From: Terriglobales bacterium
GTDB lineage: Bacteria; Acidobacteriota; Terriglobia; Terriglobales; Acidobacteriaceae
Assembly (NCBI GenBank): GCA_050746005.1
Contig: JBOGLC010000118.1
Coordinates: forward strand, 28,465 to 92,464
DNA length: 64,000 bases
Direction: 5' to 3'
The notes under the pieces were generated by a model. It was not told where the DNA came from, ran no database searches, and saw only the letters and a list, made by a program, of their open reading frames with translations. Positions 31,988-49,101 of this stretch are shown piece after piece. The position numbers and the translations under genes are program-made. Positions within the stretch are counted from its first letter, which is position 1. Every line of letters starts with the position of its first letter.

Positions 31988-32113
31988 GAGAGCCTCCGGC
32001 CGGGTCGGAATCAGTTCGCGAAGCAGATATTAGAACATGAAAGGCGTTCATTTTCGTCGGGATTGGTGTCGATGCTAGAATTCGCGCGTTGCGATCAGCG
32101 GCAAAAGCTTTAC

Positions 32114-32149
32114 CGCAGAGGACGCAAAGGATTCGCAAAGAACGCAAAG
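32114..32149 (+). repeat. four CGCARAG heptads with 9-11-9 spacing (copy 2)
   Basis: cgcagaggacgcaaaggattcgcaaagaacgcaaag, 53 nt upstream of the paralog-2 start codon. Confidence 0.8.
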
Positions 32150-32201
32150 AGGTTGTGAAAGATTTGAGGCGGGTTGTGATCGAGTTCTACGAGAGGACCG
32201 G

Positions 32202-34406
32202 ATGCTAACTAAAAGCTTTTCAAGGCGACCTTGGACTAGGAAGCTGTCGAGTGTAGCCGTGACCGCAATTGTCATCTGTTCTGCCGTGGCGCTGCCGAGG
32301 TCTTCGGCCCAGTCCATGGCGGGCGCTGCGGGAGCGCAGGTTGGGACCGTCAGGGTGGACGCGACGCTGGGACACGCGATCAATTCATTCGATCCCGACA
32401 GTGCGCTGGGCAGTTCGATCGATGTGCTGTCCCGCCGCGACATCGATATGGTGTACACGCCGCACATCATCCAGGAGTCGCTATCGGCGGGCTGGGGCCC
32501 GATCACGTATCGCAATAATACCGAGTTGCGCATGGCGGCCTGGCACTGGACAGAACATGGGACCTGGAGCGATGCCGCGCACCGCAGCGGGTATTTCACC
32601 GGCAGCACGGAACTGAAGGAGCCCATCCGATATATCCTGGCCTATGCGCTGCCTCACCGCGGCTTCGCGACCAGCGGCGACCGGCCGGTGCAGGGTTCGG
32701 ATCTTTCGTATTGGAAAAGCAATCCCTACCTGACCAGCAAATTTACCGGGGAGAGCGACGCTCTCCATCCGCAATGGGTGATCGTGGATTTGAAGGCCGA
32801 GAAACCGGTGAACGCCGTGAGTATTGCCTGGGCTAATCCTTTCGCGACAAAGTATCAGGTGGAGTATTGGGTGGGCGCAGGCGACGCCCTCGATTTCGAC
32901 GGCGGCCCCAAGGGGGAATGGAAAGTTTTCGGTTCCGGGGTGATCGGCAATGGCCAGGGTGGAGCGAGCCCGCTGAAGCTTGCCGATACGCCTGTTTCCA
33001 CGCGGTTCTTGCGCGTCCTGATGACGGAATCATCGAACACTTGCGACGAGCAGGGCTCCGGCGACGTCCGCAACTGTGTGGGCTACGCGATTCAGCAAAT
33101 TGCAGCCGGGACCATGGACGGCAGCGGCGCTTTCTCCGAGGCTGCGAAAGGTCCTGGCGAGAAGCGGACTACATTTTGCGTTTCATCGATTGATCCCTGG
33201 CATTCCGACGAGGACGTATATCAGGGCGGAGGCTACCAGCACAGCGGCTTCGATCTTTTCTTCCGCAGCGGGCTGACCAATAATCTGCCGGCAATGATTC
33301 CGGTCACCATGCTGTACGGCACTCCCGACGACGCGGCCGCGCAGGTTGCCTACATCGAGAAGCGCGGCTATCGCATCGGATACATAGAAATGGGCGAGGA
33401 ACCTGACGGTAAGCATGCCATGCCGGAGGATTATGCTGCGCTTTATTTGCAGTGGGCGACCGCCATCCACAAGGTTGATCCCAAGCTGAAACTGGGCGGG
33501 CCCGTCTTCGAAGGCGTCAATGAAGATATAACCCTGTGGCCGAACGCGCAGGGGCGCACGTCATGGATGGGCCGGTTCGTGGACTATCTGAAGGCCCACG
33601 GCCGCTTGGCCGACCTCTCTTTCGTATCGTTCGAGCATTATCCCTTCGAGCCCTGCACCATCACGTGGAAAACTCTCTACACGGAGCCGCAGCTGATCAA
33701 GCACATCCTGCAGGTGTGGAGGAATGACGGTGTTCCCAAAGAGGTTCCACTGATGGTGACCGAAAACCATCTGGCGGCCGAGCTCACCGGACCCATGACG
33801 ACGATCTTTGCCGCGCTGTGGCTGGCGGACAACGTCGGGTCTTTCTTCGAGGGAGGTGGCGCTGCGTTCTATCACTCGCCGATTCAGCCTCAGGGGCTGC
33901 AGGACAGTTGCCTGGGTTGGGCCTCATGGTCGAACTTTGTTTCCAACGAGCACTATGACATCAAGGGTTATACCTCGCCTTATTTCGCCGCGCACATGAT
34001 CAACCGGGAGTGGGTGCAGCATCGTTCCGGCGTGCATTCGATGTACAAGTCGTCTGCCGACATCCAGGACAGCGAGGGCAATGCCCTGGTAACGACCTAT
34101 GCGGTGCATCGACCGGACGGGAACTGGTCGTTGATGCTGGTGAATCGCGATGAAACGAATCCGCACACGGTACGGGTTGTGTTTGACGATTCGAAAAACA
34201 AGGTTGCATCGTTTTCCGGTCCGGTCCGGTTCGTGAGCTTCGGCAGCGAACAATATGATTGGATCAACGACGGGCTGAACAGCCACGCCGACCCGGATCA
34301 TCCCCCCGTCGGGACGACGGTCGAGGCGGGTTCCGGAACTACGTTTACCCTGCCCAAAGCTTCAATTACAGTGTTGCGCGGCAAAGTGGCGGGAATCAGA
34401 GAGTAG
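32202..34406 (+). CDS. exported discoidin domain / clan GH-A-like glycosidase (paralog 2)
   Basis: Signal peptide. 'HPQWVIVDLKAEKPVNAVSIAWANPFATKYQVEYW', 'YIEMGEEPDG', 'LMVTENHLA'. Collinear with 24712-26952. Confidence 0.7.
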   Translation: MLTKSFSRRPWTRKLSSVAVTAIVICSAVALPRSSAQSMAGAAGAQVGTVRVDATLGHAINSFDPDSALGSSIDVLSRRDIDMVYTPHIIQESLSAGWGPITYRNNTELRMAAWHWTEHGTWSDAAHRSGYFTGSTELKEPIRYILAYALPHRGFATSGDRPVQGSDLSYWKSNPYLTSKFTGESDALHPQWVIVDLKAEKPVNAVSIAWANPFATKYQVEYWVGAGDALDFDGGPKGEWKVFGSGVIGNGQGGASPLKLADTPVSTRFLRVLMTESSNTCDEQGSGDVRNCVGYAIQQIAAGTMDGSGAFSEAAKGPGEKRTTFCVSSIDPWHSDEDVYQGGGYQHSGFDLFFRSGLTNNLPAMIPVTMLYGTPDDAAAQVAYIEKRGYRIGYIEMGEEPDGKHAMPEDYAALYLQWATAIHKVDPKLKLGGPVFEGVNEDITLWPNAQGRTSWMGRFVDYLKAHGRLADLSFVSFEHYPFEPCTITWKTLYTEPQLIKHILQVWRNDGVPKEVPLMVTENHLAAELTGPMTTIFAALWLADNVGSFFEGGGAAFYHSPIQPQGLQDSCLGWASWSNFVSNEHYDIKGYTSPYFAAHMINREWVQHRSGVHSMYKSSADIQDSEGNALVTTYAVHRPDGNWSLMLVNRDETNPHTVRVVFDDSKNKVASFSGPVRFVSFGSEQYDWINDGLNSHADPDHPPVGTTVEAGSGTTFTLPKASITVLRGKVAGIRE

Positions 34407-34438
34407 TCCGCGAGAATCGCTCGCCGATAAACCGCGAC

Positions 34439-34545
34439 GTCATGCTGAGCTTGCGAAGCATCTGGCGTGGAGCGGCTATACGCCGGCCAGCGTTGTGCCG
34501 CCGCGCACAAGATCCCTTCGACTTCGCTCAGGGCACGCTCTTCGG
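34439..34545. repeat. REP cluster: family C (GTCATGCTGAGCTTGCGAAGCATCTGGCGTG) plus a partial family A' unit
   Basis: Family C unit at 34439-34470 and partial A' unit (AAGATCCCTTCGACTTCGCTCAGGGCACGCTCTTCGG) at 34509-34545, between convergent genes. Confidence 0.8.
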
Positions 34546-34612
34546 ACCAGGCGTTGCGTGCGCTACCTGGTGCGATTTGCCGGGGGCCCCAAGTCTTGCC
34601 TCTGGCTAACCG

Positions 34613-35641
34613 TCATTTCGCGCGATAAGGAATATATCCCCGGGTCCTGGTGCGCAGACGATAGACCGATGTGGTCGCCGTAATGTACAAGGTGCGGTAG
34701 TCGTTGTCTCCCCAGGCCAGGTTGGCGGGTTGCTCCGGCATTTCGATCGTGCCCAGATGCCGGCCTTGCGCATTCCACACCCAGATGCCTTTGGGACCGG
34801 TCACGAACAGGTTTCCTTTGCGGTCGATCTTCATGCCGTCGGGAACGCCCTGGTGTGGCCCGCCGGGCTCCTCGCCGAAGATTCTGCCGTTGCTCACTGA
34901 ACCATCGGGCGCGACGTCGTACACGCGAATGTTTCTCCGCTCGCTGTCATCCACGTAAAAGTGTTTCCCATCGGGTGAAAAAGCAAGCCCGTTGGGTTGG
35001 GTCAGATCTTTGGTCAGGAGGCGGACGCCGCCCTTGTCATCGAGCCGATACACACCCTGGAAGGGAATTTCCTGCTTCTCTCCCTTGACCAGATCAAGCG
35101 TGGGGTCGGTGAAGTAGAGGGCGCCGTCGGGGCCGGTCACGACGTCATTGGGACTGTTGAGTTTCATTTCGTCATAGCGATCGGCGAGGACGGCGTATTT
35201 TCCCTGGGGAGTGACCGCGATGATGGCGCGCAGAACACTGGCGCAATCGATCAGACGATGTTGCCGGTCGTAAGTGTTGCCATCCGGGTCGCCGAGCGAG
35301 ATCACTTCCTCTTTGCGGCCGTCGAGAAAGACGCGAAAGATCTTGTTCTGCTCTTCATCGCTGACATAGAGGAACCCGGACTCGTCCCACACCGGGCCTT
35401 CGGTGAAGCCGAAAGCGCCGGCCACTTTGGTCAGCTTCGCTTTGCGGTCAAGCAGTTTCCAGAACTGGGGTGAATCGGCGGTAAGCTTGAAGGTCCGCGC
35501 AGGCTTGTCGGCCGCGGCCGCGACACCCGGCGAACCCGAAAACAACAGAACGATGCCGGCCAGGGCAGCGGCTTTGAGCCAGTCATGGAGCCTTGGACGG
35601 CTGACCAGTGCCGGCGTTCTATCGATCGACCTAGTCTTCAT
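34613..35641 (-). CDS. exported SMP-30/gluconolactonase/LRE-family beta-propeller protein
   Basis: Signal peptide ending 'GSPGVAAAADK'. 'FGFTEGPVWDESGFLYVSD', 'PNDVVTGPDGALYFTD', 'PNGLAFSPDGKHFYV' and 'PDGMKIDRKGNLFV' are repeats typical of the SGL family. Confidence 0.85.
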   Translation of the reverse strand: MKTRSIDRTPALVSRPRLHDWLKAAALAGIVLLFSGSPGVAAAADKPARTFKLTADSPQFWKLLDRKAKLTKVAGAFGFTEGPVWDESGFLYVSDEEQNKIFRVFLDGRKEEVISLGDPDGNTYDRQHRLIDCASVLRAIIAVTPQGKYAVLADRYDEMKLNSPNDVVTGPDGALYFTDPTLDLVKGEKQEIPFQGVYRLDDKGGVRLLTKDLTQPNGLAFSPDGKHFYVDDSERRNIRVYDVAPDGSVSNGRIFGEEPGGPHQGVPDGMKIDRKGNLFVTGPKGIWVWNAQGRHLGTIEMPEQPANLAWGDNDYRTLYITATTSVYRLRTRTRGYIPYRAK

Positions 35642-36455
35642 CCTGATCCGCCTCCGGTTTCTTCTTGTTTCGCGCAGCGCTGATCAGGTAGCTGATGAGA
35701 TCGTCCAGTTCCTGACGGCTGAGCCGGGTGGCGTAGTCGCCGGGCATAAGGGAACGAGGCTGATATTCGATGCTTTGCAAATCCGACCGGGCAAACAGAT
35801 GCAGGTGGCCGTCCGTGGTCTGCAGTTGCAAAGAGAAGTTGTCTTCATTGCGCGCAATTCCGGCGAGTGTTTTCCCCTCTTTCGTGGTGACGATGACCAT
35901 TCGCTTTCGCGGGTCGAGACCACGGTTAGGTTCAGTAATTGCGCTTCGAATGTCAGCGACGGACAGGGTGGCGGCGTAACTGGAAAGATCGGGGCCAACG
36001 ACGCCGCCCTCGCCCTCAGTCATATGACATTGCGAACAGCCGGGTGCCCCAGTGAAAAGAATCCTGCCTTTTTTGGGATCGCCCGGAAGCTTCACCGCCA
36101 GGGTTTGTCCCTGGAGCTCGCGGAGATAGTGGACGACAGCTTCAACCTGAGCGTTGCTGAGCGAACTGAAGGCGGGCATGCCGGTTCCGGGGACACCGTC
36201 ACGAACAATCTGCATAAGAGCCCGGTCCCCCAGGCGCTGAACTTCTCGCCGGTGAGCGATATCCGGACCGTGCTCTCCCCCGGCGCCGTCGAGGCCATGG
36301 CAGGCCACGCAAGTGGTCGAAAAAATCTCCTTGGCCTCGGGGGCGGCGCCGTCAGGCTTGGCGGCTGGCTGGGCGTGCAAGTGCGCAGGTGCATTCACCA
36401 GCGCAATGCACGCCACAAACATCCACAGGAAGAATCGGGGTAGATTGCGGAGCAT
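35631..36455 (-). CDS. exported dihaem c-type cytochrome
   Basis: Signal peptide 'FFLWMFVACIALVNAPAHLHA'. Two CxxCH sites ('CVACH', 'CSQCH'). The C-terminal 'SLMPGDYATRLSRQELDDLISYL' resembles PVC-type haem-binding domains. Trimmed to ATG 36455. It overlaps the SMP-30 gene by 11 nt. Confidence 0.85.
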   Translation of the reverse strand: MLRNLPRFFLWMFVACIALVNAPAHLHAQPAAKPDGAAPEAKEIFSTTCVACHGLDGAGGEHGPDIAHRREVQRLGDRALMQIVRDGVPGTGMPAFSSLSNAQVEAVVHYLRELQGQTLAVKLPGDPKKGRILFTGAPGCSQCHMTEGEGGVVGPDLSSYAATLSVADIRSAITEPNRGLDPRKRMVIVTTKEGKTLAGIARNEDNFSLQLQTTDGHLHLFARSDLQSIEYQPRSLMPGDYATRLSRQELDDLISYLISAARNKKKPEADQDED

Positions 36456-36459
36456 CGGG

Positions 36460-36936
36460 CTATTTTCGTTTGACCGCAATGGCTGATACTTCAATGCGTG
36501 CATTGTTCACCAGCGCGGCCACTTGCACTGTGGCGCGGGCAGGCTTGGGGTCGGGCATCACGGCCTTATAGGCCTTGTTCATATCGGGGAACTCATGAAT
36601 GTCGGCTAAAAAAACGGTTACGGAAACAATATCCTTCATTTCGAAACCGGCCTCCTTCACGACCTTTTCGATGTTGGCCAGCGCCGCTTGAGTCTCCGCG
36701 CCAATTCCGCCCGGCGTGAGTTTACCTTTGTCGTCGATGCCTTCCTGGCCCGCGACGTAAAGCGTGTCGCCGGCGATTACACCGTCGCTGAAGGGAAAAC
36801 CTTCCGTGCCGGGCAGTTTGATTGCCCGCCGCTCCTGCGCGAAGCTGGTGAGGGTTACCGATTGGGCAAACAGCATCAGGACAAGCACTCCGAGGACGAC
36901 GTGCAACAGGGACAAACCGACCTTTTTGGTATTCAT
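36460..36936 (-). CDS. exported RidA (YjgF/UK114) family enamine/imine deaminase
   Basis: Signal or anchor 'VGLSLLHVVLGVLVLMLFAQSVTLTSFAQ'. RidA core 'GDTLYVAGQ...AETQAALANIEKVVKEAG...PARATVQVAAL...IEVSAIAV' retains the Arg of the PAR motif. Trimmed to ATG 36936. Confidence 0.8.
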   Translation of the reverse strand: MNTKKVGLSLLHVVLGVLVLMLFAQSVTLTSFAQERRAIKLPGTEGFPFSDGVIAGDTLYVAGQEGIDDKGKLTPGGIGAETQAALANIEKVVKEAGFEMKDIVSVTVFLADIHEFPDMNKAYKAVMPDPKPARATVQVAALVNNARIEVSAIAVKRK

Positions 36937-37036
36937 ATCGTGCCAGCTCCTTTTTGACAGCGTGAGAGTTGCTCCTTCACAATCACTCCACAACAATGCT
37001 AGAGTCCGCGTTCATATATACAACCAGGAGGCAGAG

Positions 37037-37819
37037 ATGAACAAATTGCAATTTGGGAGATTTCCGCGGAAAACGTCTTTCGCGGTGGTGGCGATGCTGT
37101 TCATCTGCGCAGCCTGGCAACTTAATTCCAGCCTGCTTGCGCAGTCCTCCGGCGGTCCTCAGCGGAGCGAAAACGACGCCCTTCTCGAGAGCTATCGCCA
37201 CGTGGAGGTGGCTTCGGTTTCGGACGCCCTTGAGCAGCTGACCGGCCGGAAGATGTACCTGTCTCATAAGATGCAATCGATTTTTCCGGCCAAATTCGCG
37301 GGGTTCGCGCTCACCGTCAAGTTGAGCAAGGATGAGGGCAACAAGGATCCCAAGGCGTTAAGCGGCATGCTGGCGGCCATCGATCAGGGATCGCAGAATT
37401 CGGTGTGGGTGATGGTGGTCGAAGACGGAGCCGACATCGCGGGAATGGGCGGACTGATGGGAACGGCCATGTCAGCCCGGGGATATTCCGGCGCGATCAT
37501 CGATGGCGGCGTGCGCGATGTTGGGCAGCTGCGCAAGATCGGTTTTCCGGTTTACGCCACCGGCATCGTTCCTTCAACTTCAGTGAGCCACTACCGCTTT
37601 GCCGGGGCAAATATCCCGGTAACCTGCGATGGTGTCGAGGTCGAGCCCGGCGACATTGTGGCCGCCGACGGGGATGGTGTCGTGATCGTGCCGCGCGCCA
37701 AGGCCGCGGAGGTTCTGGCGTTGGCCCAGGACATGGACTTCAAAGAGCATTCCATGTACTCGATTATCGAGAAATACAAATCCATTCAGGAAGCGGTCAA
37801 ACGGTTTGGCCGGTTGTGA
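37037..37819 (+). CDS. exported RraA-fold protein (HMG/CHA aldolase / oxaloacetate decarboxylase family)
   Basis: AGGAGG RBS at 37026. Signal peptide 'TSFAVVAMLFICAAWQLNSSLLAQ'. 'GGLMGTAMSARGYSGAIIDGGVRDV' and 'GDIVAADGDGVVIVP' motifs. The track ORF start (36764) was trimmed. Confidence 0.8.
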   Translation: MNKLQFGRFPRKTSFAVVAMLFICAAWQLNSSLLAQSSGGPQRSENDALLESYRHVEVASVSDALEQLTGRKMYLSHKMQSIFPAKFAGFALTVKLSKDEGNKDPKALSGMLAAIDQGSQNSVWVMVVEDGADIAGMGGLMGTAMSARGYSGAIIDGGVRDVGQLRKIGFPVYATGIVPSTSVSHYRFAGANIPVTCDGVEVEPGDIVAADGDGVVIVPRAKAAEVLALAQDMDFKEHSMYSIIEKYKSIQEAVKRFGRL

Positions 37820-37859
37820 ATTGTGGGGGGGCAGGCTCGACGGTCCTGCATTCTGCACA

Positions 37860-38603
37860 CACTCCGGTGGTGTCAGCGGACAAGCTTGCAGGCATCCTTA
37901 GGCTGCGCAGCTTCGCGAACCGAAGCAGCTACTCCGCAAAGCGGACGACAAGCAGTTCCAGGGACTGATGCCACCGTTGTTTGCCGCGGTATCGAAATAG
38001 CGTCTGCCGCCGACTTTTGCAGTCGTCATCCTGAGCGAAGGACCTATGCATTTCGCCGCCACCAGCACTTGCGCGTGTGAAGTAACAGAAGATTCAGATC
38101 AAGCAAGGTTTGGAGCACTGCGGGCGAAAAGCCAATGCAAAGGTCCTTCGTCGGGACCCTTCGCGTAGCGAAGGGTTCCGCTTCCTCAGGATGACAGCGT
38201 ATTTCGCTCGCACTCCGGGGATATCAGCGCACAAGCTTGCAGGGATCCCTCGGCTGCGCAGCTTCGCAGCCGAAGCAGCTACTCCGCAAAGCCGATGACA
38301 AGCAGTTTCAGGGACTGATGCATTCACCGTTGTTTGCCGCGATATCGAAATAGCGCCTGCCGCTGACTTTTGCAGTCTGTCATCCTGAGCGCGGTCTTGC
38401 CTCCCGCCCAGCGGGAGGCAAGCAAGCGAAGGACCTGTGCATTTCGCCGCCATCAGCAGTTGCGTGTGTGTAGTAACAGAAGGTTCAGATCAAGCAAAGT
38501 TTGGAGCGCTGCGAGCGAAAAGGCCAATGCAAAGGTCCTTCGTCGGGAACCCTTCGCGTAGCGAAGGGTTCCGCTTCCTCAGGATGACAGCATGTTTCGC
38601 TCG
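37860..38603 (+). repeat. tandem duplication of a composite REP-rich unit (copy 1: 37860-38210, 351 bp; copy 2: 38211-38603, 393 bp)
   Basis: Both copies start CACTCCGG..CAAGCTTGCAGG and end CCTCAGGATGACAGC.T.TTTCGCTCG. Copy 2 carries an extra insert of roughly 40 bp (by eye) containing the perfect hairpin CTTGCCTCCCG-CCCAG-CGGGAGGCAAG. Confidence 0.85.
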
Positions 38604-38638
38604 CGGCGTCTGCTGAGCTGACGAAGCCTGGTTTGTCG

Positions 38639-38820
38639 GGTAGCGGCTGAATTTGAAATGCAACTTCCAAAGGGTGCCATCTAAAGGGTGTCATCCTGAG
38701 GGACTTTAGTCCCGAAGAGCCTGCCCTGAGCGAAGTCGAAGGGATCTTGCGTGCCGCTGCGCGATGCCTGGCCTTGTTCGTATCCGCTGGGCGCAAGATG
38801 CTGCGCAAGCTCAGCGTCAC
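38639..38820. repeat. REP cluster: family A' unit with 5' extension (38639-38747, +) and family C unit (38795-38820, -)
   Basis: GTCATCCTGAGGGACTTTAGTCCCGAAGAGCCTGCCCTGAGCGAAGTCGAAGGGATCT. The extension GGCTGAATTTGAAATGCAACTTCC is mirrored at 62660-62687. Confidence 0.8.
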
Positions 38821-38989
38821 GCCCACGGAACGCAACGGTCACAAACTCAGCCGCTACCGTTTGTCATTAGTGATTGCTTTCCTGTAATTTTAGTTGGATA
38901 ATTTCGCTTCATTAAATCGATTCAGTTGCTCGCGCGCAGGCACAGCTTTGCTGTGTCAGGGAGCGAATTCGAGTATCCAATAAAACCTG

Positions 38990-40645
38990 ATGCGGATTGC
39001 CACTAAAAAGCGAATGGGGCGAAGGAAGGCGCTGGCGCTCGCCGCGGTTCTGGGATGTGTGATGTTGGCAGGCTTCTCGGATTTGCCCCGGGAGACAAGT
39101 TCGGTTGCGATCGACGTGCCTCCCGGCGAACTGACCGCCTCTCCGCCGGGAGCAAACTGGCTCTCCTATAACGGGGATTTTACCGGGCGCCGCTTCAGCG
39201 GCCTGTCCCAGATCAATCTCGCCAATGTCGGCCAGTTGCGGGCGCAATGGATTTTCCATTCCAGCAATTCGAACCGGTTGGAGGTGACGCCGGTGGTGGT
39301 AAACGGCGTGATGTTCGTGACCTCGGCGAATGATACTTTTGCGTTGGATGCACGCACCGGGCGAGTGATCTGGCATCACGAGTGGCCGATCTCGGCCGGG
39401 CTAATAGACGATGCGTCGGGGCATCTCAGCCGCGGGGTTGCGGTGTGGCACTCGCGAGTGTACCGGCAAACCGATAATGCGCATTTGCTCTGCCTGGACG
39501 CGCGCTCCGGGCATTTGCTGTGGGACGTGGCTTATGCCGACTGGAATCCGAATTACGGTGCGACCGGCGCGCCCCTGGTGGTAAATGACAAAGTGATCGT
39601 AGGCACTTCCGGCGGAGACGACGGGGTCCGCGGTTTTGTGGCGGCGTTCGATGCGGCCACAGGCAAGCTGGCATGGCGTTTCTGGACCCTTCCCGCTCGA
39701 GGGGAATTCGGCTCGGAGAGCTGGCCGGGAGATATGTACCTGCACGGCGGCGGCACCACCTGGATGCCGGGCACCTACGATCCTGAAACCAACACGCTGT
39801 TTTGGACGACCAGCAATCCAAGTCCGGATTTCGACGGCAAGGTACGTCCGGGCGACGACCTGTATACCTGTTCGGTGGTGGCGCTCGATCCGGGCACGGG
39901 GAAATTGAAGTGGCACTTCCAGTTCACGCCCCATGATCTGTTCGACTTCGATGCTACCGAAACCCCGATGCTGATCGACCAGGTTTACCAGGGTAAGCCG
40001 CGCAAACTTCTGGTGCAGGCAAACCGCAACGGGTTTATTTATGTGCTGGACCGGACCAACGGAAAGTTTCTGTCCGCTGCCCCGTTCGTGAAGAACCTGA
40101 CCTGGGCGAAGGGCATTGACGTGCAAGGCCGTCCGATCCGGTCCGGGCTCGAACCTGCTCCCAACGGGACCCGGATATGCCCCGGTTTCAATGGCGCGAC
40201 CAACTGGCACGCGCCGTCCTATAACGAGTCGACCCATTTCGTTTACTTCATGGCGCTGGAAGACTGCGAGATTTTCTATACCAAGCCGCAGCAATTCGAA
40301 GAAGGAAAGACTTACTATTCCACGGGCACGAAGCGGATTCCTTCGGAACTTTCGCAGAAGATTCTTCTGGCTTACGACCTGGACAACCAGTCGTTCGCGT
40401 GGCGTTATCCTCAGGTGGGCCGCGCGCACTCCGCCGGGGGGACCATGACCACAGCTTCGGGCCTGCTTTTCTTCGGCGATGATGCGCAATCGTTCGAGGC
40501 CGTGGATGCCCGGACGGGAAAGCCTCTCTGGCATTTCAATACCGGGCAGGATTTCTCGGCGTCGCCGATGAGCTATGCCGTTTCGGACAAGCAGTACGTG
40601 GCGGTCGCTGCGGGAAGTGATATTTTCAGTTTTGCATTGCCATGA
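38990..40645 (+). CDS. exported PQQ-type eight-bladed beta-propeller dehydrogenase (methanol/ethanol-family-like, no cytochrome domain)
   Basis: Signal peptide 'RKALALAAVLGCVMLAG'. Repeated AxDxxTGxxxW blades ('ALDARTGRVIW', 'CLDARSGHLLW', 'AFDAATGKLAW', 'ALDPGTGKLKW', 'AVDARTGKPLW'). Confidence 0.85.
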   Translation: MRIATKKRMGRRKALALAAVLGCVMLAGFSDLPRETSSVAIDVPPGELTASPPGANWLSYNGDFTGRRFSGLSQINLANVGQLRAQWIFHSSNSNRLEVTPVVVNGVMFVTSANDTFALDARTGRVIWHHEWPISAGLIDDASGHLSRGVAVWHSRVYRQTDNAHLLCLDARSGHLLWDVAYADWNPNYGATGAPLVVNDKVIVGTSGGDDGVRGFVAAFDAATGKLAWRFWTLPARGEFGSESWPGDMYLHGGGTTWMPGTYDPETNTLFWTTSNPSPDFDGKVRPGDDLYTCSVVALDPGTGKLKWHFQFTPHDLFDFDATETPMLIDQVYQGKPRKLLVQANRNGFIYVLDRTNGKFLSAAPFVKNLTWAKGIDVQGRPIRSGLEPAPNGTRICPGFNGATNWHAPSYNESTHFVYFMALEDCEIFYTKPQQFEEGKTYYSTGTKRIPSELSQKILLAYDLDNQSFAWRYPQVGRAHSAGGTMTTASGLLFFGDDAQSFEAVDARTGKPLWHFNTGQDFSASPMSYAVSDKQYVAVAAGSDIFSFALP

Positions 40646-40698
40646 AACTTCGCTATGGAACGAATGACGAAGGCAATCAAACTCCAGGGAGACCGATC

Positions 40699-41199
40699 AT
40701 GACCTCGACGTTCTTCAATCGTAGAAAGCTGATGACTTCGCTGGCTGCGATAGTGTCGGCCGTGGGCGCCGGAACATTGATATCCACTCGCGCCCAGGCC
40801 AAAAGCAAGGACGGCGGGGTGCGCAAGCTCAACCGCGATGGCAAGCCGGCTGACGGAAAGCAGATGATCACCGCGCTGATTACACACAACGGCCTGCTTT
40901 ACATTGCCGGCCAGGGCGCAAACTCGAATGGACCCGTGGGCAAAGATGACATCGACAGCCATACCACGAAAGTGATGGAGAATGTGAAAGAGCTGGTTGA
41001 AGCTGGCGGCGGTACTATGGATAGTGTGCTGCAGCTGACGGTTTATCTTGCCAATCTGGAGTATTACGATCCCATGAACAAGATATTCAAAACTTACTTT
41101 CCCAATGGTGGACCGGCGCGCACCACAGTGGCGGTGGCCGCGCTCCCGGGGAACTCCATGTTGGAAATTAATTGCATTGCAGCGATCGTCCGCAAATAA
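40699..41199 (+). CDS. Tat-signal RidA family protein (second copy)
   Basis: 'MTSTFFNRRKLMTSLAAIVSAVGAGTLISTRAQA' has a twin-Arg plus an h-region. RidA core 'GLLYIAGQG...PARTTVAVAALP...LEINCIAAIV'. The alternative start 40642 would overlap the PQQ gene stop. Confidence 0.75.
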   Translation: MTSTFFNRRKLMTSLAAIVSAVGAGTLISTRAQAKSKDGGVRKLNRDGKPADGKQMITALITHNGLLYIAGQGANSNGPVGKDDIDSHTTKVMENVKELVEAGGGTMDSVLQLTVYLANLEYYDPMNKIFKTYFPNGGPARTTVAVAALPGNSMLEINCIAAIVRK

Positions 41200-41254
41200 A
41201 GGCTGCCATTTACGCCTGCGGGCAACAACTGCGGGACGAAACAAGGAGGAAATC

Positions 41255-42502
41255 GTGCAACTGGGAACGGAGTGGAACCGCAGAAGCTTTCTGGGAACAT
41301 TGGGAATGATTGCCGGTTCGATGATGGCGCCGGGAAAACTTTTCGCGGCAAAAGCGGGCGCCAAGGTCAGCGGCTTCGGACAAACTGGAAATCCGTACGA
41401 AGAGCTGGGAGTTGCCACGGTTATCAATTGTGAAGGCACCATGACCATGCTGGGCGGTTCCGTCCTGCGCCCGGAACTGGAAGCCGTGATGGCCCAGGCC
41501 GCGCGCCACTTTATCAGCATTCCCGAGTTGGAGGTGGCGGCGGGCAAGCGCATCGCGGAAATGCTCAAGCTGCCGGAGGGAAACACCGCGCTGGTGACGG
41601 CGGGCGCGGCGGCGGCGATCCAGTCCGGGCTGGCAGGAATTCTTACCGGCGACAATGAAACCTACATCAAGCAACTGCCGGACCTGACCGGAATGAAGTC
41701 GGAAGTCATCATCCAGAAGACCCATCGCAACCCGTTTGACCATCAGCTCCGCACCACGGGCATAAAGCTGATTGTGATCGAAACCCGCGATGAGTTGCGG
41801 CAGGCGATCGGCCCGCGCACCGCCATGATGCACTTCTCCAACTTTGCCAACGCCGCCGGACAGATCAAAGTGGATGAGTGGCTGAACCTGGCCAAGGAAT
41901 ACAAAATTCCGTGCATGAACGACGCGGCTGCCGACACGCCGCCGGTCTCCCATCTTTGGGAGTACACCAACATGGGCTATGACCTGGTGACTTTCAGCGG
42001 CGGCAAAGCCATGCGCGGTCCGCAGTGCGCCGGATTACTGATCGGGCGCCAGGACCTGGTGGCCAACGCATTGCTGAACAACAGTCCGCACGAGGACACC
42101 TTGGGGCGCAGTTCAAAAGTAGGCAAGGAAGAAATTGTCGGGATGGTCAAGGCCCTGGATCTCTATCTCAAAGAAGACCACGATGCCTTGGCAAAAGAAT
42201 GGCAACGCCGGCTGGATTTGATATCCAAGCACATCACGCGCGTGCCGGGCGTCAGTACAGATTTTTTCACTCCTGACATCGCGAATCACGTGCCCCATAT
42301 GCAGATCACGTGGGACGAGGCAAAGATTTCCCTGACTCCGAAGCAGGTCTCCCAACTTTTGCGCCAGTCCAAGCCGGCAATCGTGATGGGAGGAGGCGAA
42401 GGGAAGCCGGGCATGGCCATGAACTCCTTCATGCTGCAACCGGGAGAAGACAAGATCGTCGCTGCACAGCTCACCAGGATTTTCCGCGAGCACGTTGCGT
42501 GA
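41255..42502 (+). CDS. Tat-signal SelA/DgaE-like PLP-dependent enzyme
   Basis: AAGGAGGA RBS and a GTG start. 'WNRRSFLGTLGMIAGSMMAPGKLFAA' is a twin-arginine motif. 'FSGGKAMRGPQCAGLLIG' matches the SelA-family PLP-Lys motif (FSGDKLLGGPQAGII in E. coli SelA). Confidence 0.75.
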   Translation: MQLGTEWNRRSFLGTLGMIAGSMMAPGKLFAAKAGAKVSGFGQTGNPYEELGVATVINCEGTMTMLGGSVLRPELEAVMAQAARHFISIPELEVAAGKRIAEMLKLPEGNTALVTAGAAAAIQSGLAGILTGDNETYIKQLPDLTGMKSEVIIQKTHRNPFDHQLRTTGIKLIVIETRDELRQAIGPRTAMMHFSNFANAAGQIKVDEWLNLAKEYKIPCMNDAAADTPPVSHLWEYTNMGYDLVTFSGGKAMRGPQCAGLLIGRQDLVANALLNNSPHEDTLGRSSKVGKEEIVGMVKALDLYLKEDHDALAKEWQRRLDLISKHITRVPGVSTDFFTPDIANHVPHMQITWDEAKISLTPKQVSQLLRQSKPAIVMGGGEGKPGMAMNSFMLQPGEDKIVAAQLTRIFREHVA

Positions 42503-42591
42503 GCGATCGCAGACGCCGGGGTACAGTTCCTCGCCGGATTCCCGGTGGAATGAAGGGTCGCATTGTTGGAAAACGCCCGGCGAAGGAGTTC

Positions 42592-43506
42592 TTAGTTCTC
42601 CGGCATGCGCCTGGCCGATCCTTTTTTCGCCAGCCACTGATTGAACTGCTCGACCATCTCCCGGGTCCACTTCGCGTCAATTTGCCCCGGCGTGTATTTA
42701 CCTTCGCGCAGCATCATGTGGCCCCATTCGTCCACCAGACGGTCCATTTCCGTGTCGTCAGCGACTTTCTGCGCCAACTGCGGAGGAATAAACGTAATGC
42801 CTTCCGGGTCGCCGACCGCGATGTCGCCGGGCATGATGGTAGTGTCGCCGATGCGGATGGGGACGTTGATGCCGGTGAGCATGACATTTTCCAGCGCGGA
42901 AGGATCAACCCCGCGAACATAAACCTCAAAGCCCGGAATCTGCTGAATTCCAGTCACATCACGCACCGAGCCATTGACGATCAGGCCGTTGTGACTCTTG
43001 GCGAAGATGGCGGTGGAAAGATTGTCGCCGGCAAATGTGCCGTATCTGATTTTGCCGAACAGATCGACTACCAGCACGTCTCCGGGCTGAAGGATGTCGA
43101 TGACCCAGGAGTTTTCGTCTCCGATACGGCGTTCCTTTTTTCCGTTGGCGCGAATCACGGAATCGACATCCGGGCGTCGGGGCATGAATACGGCGGTGAC
43201 GACGCGCCCGACCAGCCGATCTCCGCGATTGAGCACTTTCCATCCGCCCTCGAACTGGTTACGAAAGCCGGCTTCCTGCAGCACGTCCCAGGCTTCGTCC
43301 GCAGTGACGCTCTTCAGTCGCTGCAATACGGCGTCGGGTACCTGTGGCCGGCCGTCAGGAAAACGGTCGCCGTGCCATTCCGGGGTGAACGCAATTCGCT
43401 GCTCGGAGGAAAACAGCCCGAGCTGTCCGAATCCGGAAATCGCGATAGTGACTACTGCCAGCGTGGCAGCCATGAAGCGAAGCGAGTGAAAGCGACTTTT
43501 GTGCAA
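42592..43506 (-). CDS. exported RraA-fold protein (second, longer copy)
   Basis: Signal peptide 'LRFMAATLAVVTIAISGFG'. 'GDNLSTAIFAKSHNGLIVNGSVRDV' and 'GDIAVGDPEGITFIP' motifs. An extra C-terminal ~60 aa. Confidence 0.75.
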   Translation of the reverse strand: MHKSRFHSLRFMAATLAVVTIAISGFGQLGLFSSEQRIAFTPEWHGDRFPDGRPQVPDAVLQRLKSVTADEAWDVLQEAGFRNQFEGGWKVLNRGDRLVGRVVTAVFMPRRPDVDSVIRANGKKERRIGDENSWVIDILQPGDVLVVDLFGKIRYGTFAGDNLSTAIFAKSHNGLIVNGSVRDVTGIQQIPGFEVYVRGVDPSALENVMLTGINVPIRIGDTTIMPGDIAVGDPEGITFIPPQLAQKVADDTEMDRLVDEWGHMMLREGKYTPGQIDAKWTREMVEQFNQWLAKKGSARRMPEN

Positions 43507-43565
43507 GGGTCACCCACATGGAGATCAGAGTTCGAGCCGTTGGGGAAAATATCACAACGCCCTCC

Positions 43566-44915
43566 ATGCAACAACACCTTGGTCGCCGAGGAACAACGGT
43601 GAACGGCGCCCGAACTAGCTACGTGCGCTGGTTTCTGGTGGGCTGGATGTTCATCCTGAGCGCGGTCTCATACCTCGACCGCGTGAATATTTCGGTGGCC
43701 GGCCATTCCATCGCCGAGGAATACGGGCTGAGCAATGTGCAACTCGGCTACGTGTTCAGCGCGATGCTGATCGGCTATGCATTGTTCCAGACCGTGGGCG
43801 GAAGGCTCGCCGACCGCTTTGGTCCGCGCCGCGTGCTGACAGGGGGAGTTGTATGGTGGGGAATCTTCACCGGGCTGACGGCGCTGGTGCCTTCGAGCAT
43901 CCGCGGGGCTCTGTTCGTATTCATCGCCATCCGTTTTCTGCTCGGCGCCGGCGAGGCCGTGGTCTATCCCGCCTCGAATCAATTCGTGGCGCGATGGATT
44001 CCGGCGCAGGAGCGCGGCGTTGCCAACGGCTGGATTTTCGCCGGCGTGGGCGCCGGCGCCGGCCTTTCACCGCCGTTGATCACGTACTTCATGCTGCATT
44101 ATGGCTGGAGAGCGTCGTTCTGGGCATGCGCCATCATCGGCTTGGTCGCAGGAATGGTGTGGTATCTCACGGCGCGCGACGATCCCGCGGAGCATCCTCG
44201 CGTATCTGCATCGGAGCTGGCGACCATTCAGTCGGGACTGCCGATCAAAACCGATTCGGAAGGAAAAGGCGGCGGGCTCGTCCCCTGGGGAATCGTGTTC
44301 CGAAGCAGGGAAGTATGGGCGGTGACCGCCAGCTATTTCAGTTTCGGATATGTGGCCTGGATTTTCTTCAGCTGGTTCTTCATCTACCTGGCGCAGGTGC
44401 GCGGACTGAATCTGAAGGCGAGTGCGTTCTACGCCATGCTTCCGCCTATCGCAATGTCAGTCTGCAGCCTGTTGGGCGGCGGCGTCAATGACCGGCTGAC
44501 CAGGTGGCATAGCCCCCGTTTGGGACGGTGCGGCCTGGCCGCATTCGGCCTGGCTGTGGCCGGGATATTTATCGCCTGCGGTTCCCAGGTTGACAGCGCT
44601 CGTGTGGCCAGTGTTGTGCTTGCGGGCGGAGCGGGAGCGCTGTATCTGGCGCAGAGTTCGTTCTGGTCGGTGACGGCGGACATTGCCGGAAAATCGTCCG
44701 GATCGGTTTCCGGCTTCATGAACATGGGAGCGCAGATTGGCGGGGCCGTCACTGCGTCGCTCACGCCGGCGATCGCGGCGCGCTTTGGCTGGACGGCGTC
44801 ATTTCTGGTGGCCGCGGGGTTGTGTTTTCTGGGAGCGGCGGCCTGGCTGATGGTCGATCCCACACGGGTGTTGAGCGCTTCTGCGCTGAGAGCGGACGAA
44901 CTCCCACGACGGTGA
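43566..44915 (+). CDS. MFS transporter, ACS (anion:cation symporter; hexuronate/aldonate-type) family
   Basis: 'RWFLVGWMFILSAVSYLDRVNISVAG' and 'GGRLADRFGPRRVL' are typical ACS-family motifs. Start ambiguous (43518, 43566 or GTG 43599). Confidence 0.8.
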   Translation: MQQHLGRRGTTVNGARTSYVRWFLVGWMFILSAVSYLDRVNISVAGHSIAEEYGLSNVQLGYVFSAMLIGYALFQTVGGRLADRFGPRRVLTGGVVWWGIFTGLTALVPSSIRGALFVFIAIRFLLGAGEAVVYPASNQFVARWIPAQERGVANGWIFAGVGAGAGLSPPLITYFMLHYGWRASFWACAIIGLVAGMVWYLTARDDPAEHPRVSASELATIQSGLPIKTDSEGKGGGLVPWGIVFRSREVWAVTASYFSFGYVAWIFFSWFFIYLAQVRGLNLKASAFYAMLPPIAMSVCSLLGGGVNDRLTRWHSPRLGRCGLAAFGLAVAGIFIACGSQVDSARVASVVLAGGAGALYLAQSSFWSVTADIAGKSSGSVSGFMNMGAQIGGAVTASLTPAIAARFGWTASFLVAAGLCFLGAAAWLMVDPTRVLSASALRADELPRR

Positions 44916-44933
44916 GCATTGGTGGAGCTTTTC

Positions 44934-44962
44934 GCACGAGCGCGGGCGCTCGCGCCTACATT
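44934..44962. repeat. Family B repeat, single arm
   Basis: GCACGAGCGCGGGCGCTCGCGCCTACATT between the convergent MFS and MBL genes. Confidence 0.7.
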
Positions 44963-45898
44963 TTAGCGGGCGCGGAGGAGGAAAGAGATGCCGTCGGAAC
45001 GGTAAATGGCCTTGCCGGCCTCCTGCGGTTCCGGCGACACTTTGCCCGCGCGAACGGCTTCAATTGCGACAACCAACCTCGGCAGCACCGACGGCTGCGC
45101 GAAGGGCACGTTGTGCGCGCCCAGGACGAGCTTAAGGTCCGGAACCAGGACGGCGAGGCGTTTTACTGAAGCGACGTAATCATCGAGATTGGTCTCCGGG
45201 CGAAACAGCCAGATCGGAGCGGGATAGTAGGTGTCGCCGGTGAACAGCAGGCCGTGGGCGTGGTCGAGCAGAGAGATGGCATCGGGAGTGTGGCCCGGCG
45301 TGGAGAGAATTTCCAGGGTGCGGCCGCCCAGATCGATTTTGTCGTGGTCGTGAAGAAAGCGGGAGATTTTCCAGGGCCGGGTCGAATAGGATTTGGCGTC
45401 AAAGCCTTTGGGCAGATCGCCGCAGATCATACCCGGGCCCAGCTCATCCTGAGCATCCTGGCGCGAACCTTTTGCGTTGGTCCGGGTGAAATCCGTATCC
45501 ATTCCATAGACAGTTTCGAACTGCCAGTTGTCACCGACGTGATCATTGTGGGTGTGGGAATTGAGGACGATGATGGGCAGATGAGTGATTCCGGCGGTGA
45601 TCTTTTTAATATCGCCGATGCCCATGCCGGTATCGAACAACAGCGCCTGTGTCTGGCCCACAATAAGGTAAGAGATAGTTTCTTCCGCCTGATGCGGTTC
45701 GTAAATCGCGAAGACACGCGGGACCACCTCGTAGACTTCGAACCAGGGATCGCTGACGGAAATACGTTTGAGCGTTCTGTATTCGGGCCGCGGGAGGGCG
45801 CGGCACCATTCGGGTTTGCCGGTTTGAGCCGGAGATGAAGCTGGCAGTCCGGCTACGAAAGCGATAAGTGCAGCGGCGAGGGGGGCGGTCCACTTCAC
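44963..45898 (-). CDS. exported MBL-fold metallo-hydrolase
   Basis: Signal peptide 'APLAAALIAFVAGLPASSPAQ' and the 'HTHNDHVGD' (HxHxDH) motif. Its GTG start lies 2 nt after the rpsA stop. Confidence 0.8.
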   Translation of the reverse strand: MKWTAPLAAALIAFVAGLPASSPAQTGKPEWCRALPRPEYRTLKRISVSDPWFEVYEVVPRVFAIYEPHQAEETISYLIVGQTQALLFDTGMGIGDIKKITAGITHLPIIVLNSHTHNDHVGDNWQFETVYGMDTDFTRTNAKGSRQDAQDELGPGMICGDLPKGFDAKSYSTRPWKISRFLHDHDKIDLGGRTLEILSTPGHTPDAISLLDHAHGLLFTGDTYYPAPIWLFRPETNLDDYVASVKRLAVLVPDLKLVLGAHNVPFAQPSVLPRLVVAIEAVRAGKVSPEPQEAGKAIYRSDGISFLLRAR

Positions 45899-45900
45899 CG

Positions 45901-47598: not shown

Positions 47599-47757
47599 GA
47601 GGGTCACAGACTCGGACTGCCAGGAATACTGGCTAGGATAGCACTCCGGGCGCGTATCCGCCGCCATGGAAATGGGAAGAAGAACCCAGATGGCCTAGTG
47701 GCCAGTGCATAAAGTAGACCCCCGCGAATCGCTGCGGCGCGGTATAGAATCTCCGCC

Positions 47758-49089: not shown

Positions 49090-49101
49090 AGAAAGCTTCG
49101 C

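Follow-up and report, generated by a model that had tools for sequence, protein, structure and literature searches.

A cluster of genes at positions 34613–44915 of a 64 000-nt stretch of contig JBOGLC010000118.1 from a Terriglobales bacterium (assembly GCA_050746005.1; the whole stretch is called the window below) encodes RidA, RraA-fold and SelA/DgaE-like proteins, each with a predicted export signal, beside a quinoprotein dehydrogenase, a cytochrome c and a lactonase. The combination suggests a periplasmic version of amino-aldonate deamination, drawn from protein families that are otherwise cytoplasmic. On the minus strand lie the genes for an SMP-30/gluconolactonase (SGL) family lactonase with a Sec-type signal (…GVAAAADKP; 34613..35641; Pfam PF08450, E 1.6e-51), for a signal-bearing dihaem cytochrome c with the motifs CVACH and CSQCH (35631..36455, alternative start 36503; PF00034/PF13442 and TIGR02603) and for RidA-1 (ridA1, 36460..36936; PF01042, E 4.5e-33), whose Sec-type signal reads MNTKKVGLSLLHVVLGVLVLMLFA…SFA↓QE (arrows mark the predicted end of a leader). 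The plus strand then carries rraA1, for a 260-aa RraA-fold protein with a Sec-type signal that resembles 4-hydroxy-4-methyl-2-oxoglutarate/4-carboxy-4-hydroxy-2-oxoadipate (HMG/CHA) aldolases (37037..37819; PF03737, E 2e-35), and the gene for a signal-bearing pyrroloquinoline quinone (PQQ) eight-bladed propeller dehydrogenase (38990..40645; PF01011, E 1e-85). These are followed by ridA2, for RidA-2 (40699..41199; PF01042, E 1.6e-23) with a twin-arginine leader (MTSTFFNRRKLMTSLAAIVSAVGAGTLISTRAQA↓K, roughly 40699–40800), and by selA, with a GTG start, for a SelA/DgaE-like fold-type-I pyridoxal 5'-phosphate (PLP) enzyme (41255..42502; PF03841/PF00266), also with a twin-arginine leader (MQLGTEWNRRSFLGTLGMIAGSMMAPGKLFAA↓K, roughly 41255–41350). 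A second RraA-fold gene on the minus strand (rraA2, 42592..43506; 304 aa, Sec-type signal; PF03737, E 1.4e-23), a plus-strand gene for an ACS-like inner-membrane transporter of the major facilitator superfamily (MFS; 43518..44915, start uncertain between 43518, 43566 and 43599; PF07690, E 6e-67) and a minus-strand gene for a metallo-beta-lactamase (MBL)-fold hydrolase with a Sec-type signal (44963..45898; Pfam and NCBIfam) complete the run.

The original prediction, made from the letters of the window without database searches, had placed these ten genes and named their families; open reading frames (ORFs) occur at those positions, and Pfam and NCBIfam agree with the assignments. Its spacing is also reproduced with the best-supported start codons, the SGL and cytochrome c genes overlapping by 11 nt, ridA1 and the cytochrome c gene lying 4 nt apart, and the gaps in PQQ–ridA2–selA, given earlier as about 55 nt, measuring 53 and 55 nt. 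The genes had also been described as consecutive, which holds for their order but needs one correction, as a 1.17-kb gap separates rraA1 from the PQQ gene. This gap holds a tandem direct repeat (37850–38610; period about 350–392 nt, about two copies, 84–95 % identical), and a 27-nt palindrome, GGAACCCTTCGCGTAGCGAAGGGTTCC, lies inside two repeat units and has no other copy in the window. The same interval is only about 290 nt long in a 91 %-identical relative (L002), and no copy of the repeat was found among the fetched relative loci. A search of positions 30000–50000 against Rfam gave no matches, and a promoter and terminator scan performed no better than it did on shuffled sequence. Identity over the cores is 36 % between the RidA copies and 34 % between the RraA-fold copies; each pair therefore consists of old paralogues and not of recent duplicates. 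The divergent frames of rraA2 (TTG at 43506) and the MFS gene (ATG at 43518) start only 11 nt apart; either the MFS start lies downstream, at ATG 43566 or GTG 43599, or the transcripts would be leaderless or overlapping.

RidA is usually viewed as protecting PLP enzymes in the cytoplasm, RraA-fold proteins are known for regulating RNase E or as aldolases of the cytoplasm, and SelA/DgaE-like enzymes are regarded as cytoplasmic. Every soluble enzyme of the window nevertheless begins with leader architecture, consisting either of a charged n-region, a hydrophobic core and an AxA-like site or of a twin-arginine (RR) motif. Leaders of the Sec type are present on the lactonase, the cytochrome c, RidA-1, both RraA-fold proteins, the PQQ enzyme and the MBL hydrolase, and RR leaders are limited to RidA-2 (FFNRRKLM…AQA↓K) and the PLP enzyme (WNRRSFLG…LFAA↓K), the latter motif resembling the S/T-R-R-x-F-L-K consensus of the twin-arginine translocation (Tat) system. 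This apparent division of export routes makes sense in terms of cofactors: RR leaders occur only on the PLP enzyme, which presumably has to fold round its cofactor in the cytoplasm, and on the RidA encoded immediately before it, and the proteins that depend on haem, PQQ or metal ions have leaders of the Sec type.

The leaders are conserved. A scan of one genome per species with an alignment of six SelA-like sequences yielded 80 related loci, from Terriglobia/Acidobacteriota metagenome-assembled genomes (MAGs) only; all related loci discussed here lie on MAG or metagenome contigs. Orthologues from these 80 loci, in which the SelA-like proteins are 65–91 % identical to that of the window, were examined by a heuristic applied to six-frame ORFs, a leader being scored where the frame was open upstream of the domain and contained a hydrophobic 10-mer with an in-frame start and a basic residue ahead of it. 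A leader was found in all 68 rraA1 products, in 30 of 31 rraA2 products, in 43/43 SGL proteins, in 42 of the 51 ridA1 products and in 56/63 PQQ enzymes, and the RR motif in 95 of 97 SelA-like proteins and 59/72 ridA2 products. The same test flagged only 4 of 86 products (5 %) of cytoplasmic-type control genes from the same loci (IclR 1/38, KDG-kinase-like 0/21, NagB-like 3/17, rpsA 0/8, FAH 0/2). Leader sequences vary between species, and their charge, hydrophobic core and ends (VRA↓QS, AHA↓QL, LFAA↓K) are retained, a pattern typical of the evolution of signal peptides.

An explanation that would remove the need for export is that the signals are start-codon artefacts, or anchors of enzymes facing the cytoplasm, and that the proteins are ordinary cytoplasmic RidA, RraA and DgaE-like enzymes. 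Alternative downstream starts do exist in several of the genes, and the Pfam TAT_signal model gave no match on four leader peptides, so that the Tat assignment depends on the RR motif and its conservation. However, the frames are open through the leaders in nearly all orthologues, with hydrophobicity, charge and the AxA or RR motif kept, and this is set against the low rate in the controls. Strong Shine–Dalgarno sequences precede the signal-including starts of ridA1 (AAGGAG), rraA1 (AGGAGG) and selA (AAGGAGG), and GGAGG precedes that of SGL; the better-supported starts thus keep the signals. Solved cytoplasmic homologues begin at the domain and do not have the N-terminal extension of 25–45 residues, and the 260-aa rraA1 product, leader included, was called independently by JGI, NCBI and ENA. 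A wrong choice of start codon was rejected on the open frames, the conserved leader features, the Shine–Dalgarno sequences and the controls, and we regard artefact or anchor as scarcely credible. The comparison thus confirms, at the level of sequence, that the predicted signals are not start-codon artefacts; the claim that every soluble enzyme of the cluster carries one is borne out by the motifs and by the orthologues, and the proteins of the module are very probably extracytoplasmic.

The genes also stay together. Co-occurrence was counted in the 62 loci with full 10-kb flanks, by phmmer with the window proteins at E <= 1e-6, a threshold that divergent members may escape. At this threshold ridA2 is present in 92 % of the 62 selA loci, the cytochrome c gene in 90 %, rraA1 and the PQQ gene in 89 % each, the MFS gene in 87 % and SGL in 73 %. 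The commonest order is that of the window, with SGL, the cytochrome c gene and ridA1 on one strand and, on the other, rraA1, the PQQ gene, ridA2, selA and the MFS gene, rraA2 where present lying in opposite orientation before the last. The tightest pair is ridA2 and selA, the former lying directly upstream of the latter in 57 of the 62 loci, and in 53/62 the MFS gene follows selA or rraA2. Other neighbours in the window (rpsA, an esterase gene, the MBL hydrolase gene, cydA and a polysaccharide deacetylase gene) are common to only 3–10 % of loci. Co-localisation in related genomes is therefore found for the core genes, at 87–92 % against at most 10 % for the flanks, an observation confirmed as far beyond chance, and it supports a functional module as opposed to a chance neighbourhood. 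As the module persists in changing surroundings, the MBL hydrolase and the polysaccharide deacetylase, both drawn into the original prediction, were rejected as parts of it (10 % and 8 % of related loci, respectively).

What is gained or lost beside the module in relatives is informative about its likely substrate. A set of three genes recurs in many relatives (L006, 6802–7755; L020, 12652–13758; L021, 12752–13570; and their equivalents): an IclR regulator gene (KdgR/BhcR-like) between rraA1 and the PQQ gene; directly after the MFS gene, a PfkB gene resembling 2-keto-3-deoxygluconate (KDG)/2-keto-3-deoxygalactonate (KDGal) kinases; and, nearby, a NagB-like gene, a homologue of glucosamine-6-phosphate deaminase. 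None of the three products has a signal. Genes for KduD-like proteins, 2-keto-3-deoxy-6-phosphogluconate (KDPG) aldolase and TonB receptors also adjoin the module, and a close relative (L001) has an amidohydrolase gene in place of SGL, the cytochrome c gene and the PQQ gene. These neighbours support a part for the module in amino-sugar and keto-deoxy-sugar-acid metabolism, as far as gene content can indicate it. In some Terriglobia a second, paralogous module lies beside the first (L017, 302–6129; also L010, L028, L040, L042 and L046–L049). It encodes a 438-aa protein with three tandem RidA domains, which we take to be the '3x-RidA' of Niehaus 2015 and which has a signal peptide in at least two orthologues (L010 and L028), and a second SelA-like paralogue with a Tat leader; a weak DUF4380-like protein and a PQQ dehydrogenase are encoded divergently.

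A counterpart exists outside the Terriglobia. A search with the SelA-like protein over 1.84 billion cluster representatives gave 4379 relatives. Among the 88 near-full-length representatives within the best 150 of these, 30 have an RR-containing extension of at least 22 residues and the rest start at a conserved IYExLGV. The first distant locus (P0137) lies on a contig of 39 % GC and encodes a protein 43–44 % identical to the SelA-like protein of the window, with an SGL lactonase, a second SelA-like protein, an amidohydrolase and a RidA as neighbours, all signal-bearing. A metagenome scan seeded with the P0137-type protein gave 80 loci, the low-GC ones among them being Bacteroidota-like by GC content and SusC/SusD neighbours, the only grounds for their taxonomy. 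The order SGL, ridA, selA, amidohydrolase, rraA, in one direction, recurs among these low-GC loci. Leaders are again the rule, being present on 54/54 amidohydrolases, 17 of 18 RraA-fold proteins and 46 of 50 RidA proteins (39 with RR), and the RR motif is found in 93 of 102 SelA-like proteins. The distant RraA-fold proteins score 270–300 bits to rraA2 as against about 30 bits to rraA1, which makes them rraA2 orthologues by sequence; the rraA2 type is, on this evidence, the one conserved across phyla, and the rraA1 type is specific to Terriglobia. The distant RidA proteins are closer to ridA2.

The commonest further neighbours in these loci are SBF-family transporters (11 of 100 neighbour proteins) and fusions of cytochrome c with a PQQ sugar dehydrogenase of the GSDH family (aldose/sorbosone type; 7/100). 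At one locus (L100, 6138–15689; contig 43 % GC) a co-directional operon of eight genes encodes, in order, a GSDH–cytochrome c fusion, SGL, RidA, a SelA-like protein, an amidohydrolase, an RraA-fold protein, an SBF transporter and an AraC regulator, and would seem to be a functional twin of the window cluster with partly non-orthologous parts. The order of steps proposed for the window from its genes alone (oxidation, lactone opening, PLP/RidA deamination, RraA-fold enzyme, import) is echoed independently by this operon. That the same functional set has been assembled in two lineages with non-orthologous dehydrogenases and transporters argues more strongly than any other observation for joint action of the parts. 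As GSDH enzymes convert aldoses to lactones, a sugar-to-lactone step is also supported. The amidohydrolase of the Bacteroidota-like version would suit a substrate that bears an N-acetyl group, for instance N-acetylglucosaminic acid or its lactone; in relatives it scores above the cut-off of NF006689/PRK09237 and is related to TIGR03583 (EF_0837), a protein presumably encoded beside DgaE-family genes in Firmicutes.

These linkage data bear on whether the substrate is a sugar derivative at all. The genes may instead serve a periplasmic deaminase that scavenges nitrogen from free D- or beta-hydroxy amino acids (D-serine, D-threonine or, with the amidohydrolase, N-acyl-D-amino acids). The SelA-like lyase and RidA would then set ammonia free outside the cell and the RraA-fold proteins would decarboxylate or cleave the resulting oxo-acid, the PQQ enzyme, cytochrome c and lactonase forming a separate unit for the oxidation of sugars or alcohols that travels with the deaminase genes. 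The tightness of the ridA2–selA pair would follow, as would those distant loci that have SelA, RidA and amidohydrolase genes and no lactonase or dehydrogenase gene. DgaE-type and OngC-type lyases do use beta-hydroxy D-alpha-amino acids, D-serine and D-threonine being among the substrates that OngC deaminates (PMC9537276), and extracellular deamination has a precedent in a periplasmic L-amino-acid oxidase that has RidA as a subunit (PMC5053998). Yet a dehydrogenase with cytochrome c and a lactonase are tied to the core in two lineages by non-orthologous proteins, which is hard to explain without a shared pathway, and the genes that adjoin the module in relatives belong to sugar-acid metabolism (KDG-kinase-like, KdgR-like, KduD-like, KDPG aldolase, NagB-like) and not to that of amino acids. 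We consider an amino-acid substrate unlikely.

The residues of the PLP enzyme are consistent with a lyase for an unphosphorylated substrate. It aligns over about 370 residues to DgaE of Salmonella (PDB 7lc0, E 7.8e-28) and retains the PLP lysine (FSGGKAM, K213) and an arginine (LIGRQ, Arg226 of 7lc0) that is the proposed binder of the alpha-carboxylate. Among representatives of the exported clade the lysine is present in 31/31 and Arg226 in 24 of 31, with lysine at this position in six more. The segment around His162/His163 of DgaE is FSNFANAAG in the window enzyme, free of histidine, and Arg301, Arg332 and Arg346 align to H, G and F; neither His163 nor Arg346 is kept in any of the 31. In DgaE these three arginines dock the substrate phosphate, and C-3 receives its proton from the strictly conserved His163, which may keep a toxic intermediate from being released (PMC9529869). 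From the missing phosphate-binding arginines we infer an unphosphorylated substrate, as expected outside the cytoplasm, where there is no ATP; the missing proton donor points to release of the enamine/imine, which would account for the ridA gene immediately preceding selA in 57 of the 62 loci.

The Dga pathway shares with the proposed one the PLP fold and family, the lysine and Arg226, and the chemistry, an amino-aldonate being converted to a 2-keto-3-deoxy acid and NH3 and then passed to an aldolase (PMC9529869). It differs in that DgaE is cytoplasmic and acts on a 6-phosphate delivered by the phosphotransferase system, whereas the window enzyme has a Tat leader and lacks Arg301/332/346 and His162/163, and in that the aldolase-like partners here are RraA-fold and not DgaF-type proteins. 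The likeness to DgaE noted from the sequence is thus retained for the SelA/DgaE-like fold, the lysine and Arg226, but the scores, the phosphate arginines and the His–His pair show that the enzyme is not a DgaE orthologue. The selA product and its homologues are annotated publicly as 'L-seryl-tRNA(Ser) seleniumtransferase', and exported RraA-fold proteins as 'regulator of RNase E activity RraA'; a conserved export signal would be incompatible with either annotation.

Catalytic residues are likewise kept in the proposed partners, which upholds the family logic on which the pathway was first drawn (lysine and Arg226 in the PLP enzyme, Arg105 in RidA, Arg123/Asp124 in the RraA-fold proteins). When aligned to solved RidA proteins both copies retain the catalytic Arg105 of archetypal RidA (E. 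coli/Salmonella numbering; 'PAR') in KPARATVQVAAL (ridA1) and GPARTTVAVAAL (ridA2), and both reach the PF01042 cut-off; the nearest PDB entries to RidA-1 are 2-iminobutanoate/2-iminopropanoate deaminases (E 7e-24). Against AGVRDTQTL of the HMG/CHA aldolase 3noj, the RraA-fold proteins read GGVRDVGQL (rraA1) and GSVRDVTGI (rraA2), with Arg123, which we take to be catalytic, and Asp124, presumably metal-binding, kept in both. Structural matches of rraA2 include PDB 5x15 (E 1.9e-22) and also 3noj. With HMG/CHA aldolase and RraA the two window proteins thus share the fold and these residues, and they differ in their Sec-type signals and sub-cut-off scores. The RNase E regulator model NF006875 (cut-off 136) gives 53.3 bits for rraA1 and 38.2 for rraA2, and the proteins are 260 and 304 aa long as against about 160 aa; as an exported protein cannot regulate cytoplasmic RNase E, the name 'regulator of RNase E activity RraA' would be unfit for them. 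By their sequences the PLP enzyme, the RidA copies and the RraA-fold proteins are members of superfamilies and not of characterised families.

In the PDB the dehydrogenase is closest to the dehydrogenase domain of 1kv9, a quinohaemoprotein alcohol dehydrogenase of type II (E 1.4e-98), but it has no haem domain. It reaches the PF01011 cut-off (289 bits) and falls below that of TIGR04528 (531, cut-off 650) and just below that of TIGR03075 (473, cut-off 480.05); the best NCBIfam model, likewise below its cut-off, is 'acido-empty-quinoprotein group A'. The catalytic Asp is present in DLFDFD and is followed two residues later by a further Asp (FDFD); the pattern D-[YF]-D is found in 58 of 59 orthologues. 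A D-x-D aspartate is the signature of lanthanide-dependent PQQ dehydrogenases of the XoxF/PedH type. The vicinal Cys–Cys of classical PQQ alcohol/methanol dehydrogenases is absent from the window enzyme and from all 59 orthologues. A lipobox-like Cys in the window enzyme (VLGC) and in many orthologues from L002–L081 (e.g. AFLGC) suggests that the enzyme may be a lipoprotein. The role given to it at the outset stands as far as a PQQ propeller beside a cytochrome c goes, but by its matches the enzyme is of the alcohol-dehydrogenase and not the glucose-dehydrogenase type. In the cytochrome c the second half matches the TIGR02603 haem-binding domain (114.7 bits, cut-off 68.15), and the lactonase matches PF08450 over its full length (175.7 bits against a cut-off of 26.3; profile positions 1–245 of 246). 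The best NCBIfam model of the MFS protein is TIGR00893, a D-galactonate transporter model of the ACS family (225.9 bits, below the cut-off of 395).

As in periplasmic PQQ-dependent oxidation of aldoses and alcohols (1kv9 type), a PQQ propeller would pass electrons to a c-type cytochrome and a lactonase gene lies adjacent, and the Bacteroidota-like twin likewise has a GSDH-family enzyme fused to cytochrome c. The window differs in that its cytochrome is a separate dihaem protein and not a fused domain, and in that its dehydrogenase has the extra lanthanide-type aspartate and no vicinal Cys–Cys. We know of no description of such an oxidation system linked to a deaminating module.

The lactonase also invites a quite different explanation, in which the locus serves lactone or antibiotic detoxification or quorum quenching: the lactonase, perhaps with the MBL hydrolase, would open a lactone, an amidase would deacylate the product and the PLP enzyme and RidA would deaminate the amino acid so freed. 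SMP-30/PON-like and MBL-fold enzymes include acyl-homoserine-lactone lactonases, the MBL protein has a weak match to AiiA (E 0.008), and RidA hydrolyses 2-iminobutanoate, the product expected from elimination of homoserine or threonine, as judged from the molecule names of the PDB matches. But only 10 % of related loci have the MBL gene, no amidohydrolase was found in the window by tblastn with the relatives' proteins, and the PQQ enzyme, the cytochrome c, the RraA-fold proteins and the sugar-acid neighbours would be left without a role. We think this explanation very improbable.

Our working hypothesis remains a conserved module for the periplasmic catabolism of an amino sugar or a 2-amino-2-deoxy-aldonic acid, for which we judge the evidence evenly poised; derivation of the substrate from glucosamine or N-acetylglucosamine in particular is a tentative suggestion and somewhat doubtful. 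From gene content, conserved residues, leader sequences and linkage, all of them observed, we infer a location, the enzyme activities, an order of steps and a type of substrate as follows. An amino sugar, or an already oxidised form of it, would enter the periplasm, TonB-dependent receptors being frequent neighbours. The lanthanide-type PQQ dehydrogenase, possibly lipid-anchored, would oxidise it and pass electrons to the dihaem cytochrome c, and the SMP-30 lactonase would open the lactone to give an amino-aldonate, from which the amidohydrolase, where encoded, would remove an N-acetyl group. The PLP enzyme, exported by Tat and presumably given its cofactor while still in the cytoplasm, would then eliminate the beta-hydroxyl and release an enamine/imine, to be hydrolysed by the exported RidA proteins to a 2-keto-3-deoxy acid and ammonia. 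Import of the keto-deoxy acid by the ACS-type MFS transporter (or SBF) would allow the cytoplasmic KDG-kinase-like enzyme and KDPG aldolase of relatives to continue; the exported RraA-fold proteins, which resemble class II aldolases/decarboxylases, may also cleave part of it in the periplasm.

Several observations weigh against this pathway, in addition to the silence of the TAT_signal model. Two of its genes are less constant than the rest, ridA1 occurring in 66 % and rraA2 in 35 % of the 62 selA loci. The PLP enzyme does not reach the DgaE models (NF047797, 133.1 bits, cut-off 600; TIGR01437, 175.7 bits, cut-off 385.3), the RidA proteins stay just below the 106.25-bit cut-off of TIGR00004 (98.8 for ridA1 and 82.0 for ridA2), and the aldolase models NF006731 (cut-off 179) and TIGR02798 (cut-off 304.5) give only 104.6 and 96.4 bits for rraA1 and 68.5 and 64.8 bits for rraA2. 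The PQQ enzyme belongs to the alcohol-dehydrogenase and not the glucose-dehydrogenase clade, so that its family does not imply a sugar substrate. The search of the window by tblastn that found no amidohydrolase gene found no IclR, KDG-kinase-like or NagB-like gene either. To our knowledge no RraA-fold enzyme cleaves KDG-type acids. Least secure is the role of the RraA-fold proteins: they may split some of the keto-deoxy acid into pyruvate and an aldehyde, as in the original prediction, use a different stereoisomer or a dicarboxylic analogue, or catalyse a decarboxylation. Finally, a KDG-kinase-like gene after the MFS gene in relatives points to import of the keto-deoxy acid and makes full periplasmic cleavage to pyruvate doubtful. 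Of the complete extracytoplasmic route envisaged in the original prediction, comparison thus favours the module, its location and the order of its steps, but not the substrate, the activities or the final cleavage.

Beside the Dga pathway, the closest chemical parallel is the Ong pathway for oxidised chitin in Pseudoalteromonas, in which OngB (a D-aminoacylase), OngC (a deaminase), OngD (a RidA protein) and KdgK act in turn (PMC9537276); GlcNAc1A is converted to GlcN1A and then to KDG and NH3 in the cytoplasm, the RidA is genetically essential and a KDG kinase follows (PMC9537276). The pattern of amidohydrolase, RidA, lyase and neighbouring kinase is seen in the window or its relatives, and the predicted chemistry matches. 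OngB, OngC and OngD are, however, predicted to be cytoplasmic, whereas their counterparts here are all signal-bearing; OngC is a fold-type III PLP enzyme, whereas the window enzyme is of fold type I and SelA-like; and a PQQ enzyme, a cytochrome c, a lactonase and an RraA-fold protein are all missing from the Ong cluster. A parallel for location is the periplasmic L-amino-acid oxidase M-alpha/M-beta of Chlamydomonas with its RidA partner, together with a bacterial lao-cccA-ridA cluster that is itself predicted (PMC5053998). There too an extracytoplasmic RidA accompanies a c-type cytochrome and an enzyme that gives rise to imines, and the ammonia is set free outside the cell; the imine is produced by a flavin oxidase and not by a PLP lyase, and there is no lactonase, PQQ enzyme, RraA-fold or SelA-like enzyme. 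The suggestion that RidA, RraA-like and SelA-like enzymes outside the cytoplasm were without precedent must therefore be modified for RidA (PMC5053998), but full-text searches found no description of the combination, nor one of exported RidA, RraA-fold or SelA-like enzymes or of periplasmic glucosaminate lyases. The principal genomic survey of the Rid family nowhere mentions signal peptides or the periplasm.

Outside the module the window encodes two paralogues, each of about 740 aa and each with an F5/8 type C (discoidin) domain (32202–34406 and 24712–26952). Their conservation in Terriglobales is high (at least 78 % identity among the best 120 homologues), and proteins of this type lie near the module in 16–26 % of related loci. 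Sequence searches found nothing in them beyond the F5/8-C domain. An AlphaFold model of low confidence (pLDDT 48.7) matches clan GH-A folds of GH79, GH51 and GH44 (E about 1e-13, TM 0.27–0.45), the top match being the GH79 beta-glucuronidase of Acidobacterium capsulatum. Of the 'discoidin glycosidases' named earlier, then, the discoidin domain is present, and the model gives a hint, through a weak fold match, that the remainder may be a glycosidase. A few kb upstream of the module lie cydA and cydB, for cytochrome bd oxidase, and a gene for a TauE/SafE-family membrane protein (27533–30852, minus strand); this block also flanks the module in L001, cydA alone does so in L002 and L058, and neither is found in more distant loci. 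Elsewhere in the window are a 1402-aa ORF (19355–23563, minus strand) with no Pfam match at E <= 0.001 and a gene for a 1346-aa protein with FG-GAP/ASPIC-UnbV repeats, an AhpC/TSA (redoxin) domain and a long TPR array (54747–58787, plus strand), just upstream of which are genes for a PfkB kinase (53689–54744) and a RhaT-like symporter (52099–53112).

It is tempting to speculate on a wider meaning. The module may represent a widespread and so far unrecognised periplasmic pathway of soil Acidobacteriota and Bacteroidota-like organisms, in which amino sugars, or their oxidised or N-acetylated lactone and aldonate forms, would be fully deaminated outside the cytoplasm by a Tat-exported PLP lyase that, having lost the internal proton donor of DgaE, needs a dedicated co-exported RidA, with extracytoplasmic RraA-fold aldolases/decarboxylases and with electrons passing into respiration by way of a lanthanide-type PQQ dehydrogenase, or a GSDH–cytochrome fusion, and cytochrome c; in this general form we put the proposal forward with some reserve, as possible but not the likelier outcome. 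If it is correct, the 'metabolite damage control' exerted by RidA would reach into the periplasm, and a third role in the cell would be added to those of RraA-fold proteins. The widespread misannotation of such proteins as 'regulator of RNase E activity RraA' and 'L-seryl-tRNA(Ser) seleniumtransferase' would be corrected, and several large uncharacterised protein clades would acquire a testable function. Abundant soil bacteria of the Terriglobia and Bacteroidota would then release ammonia and harvest electrons from amino sugars before taking them up, which would have a bearing on the turnover of nitrogen and carbon in soil, where chitin, peptidoglycan and microbial necromass are major pools of amino sugars.

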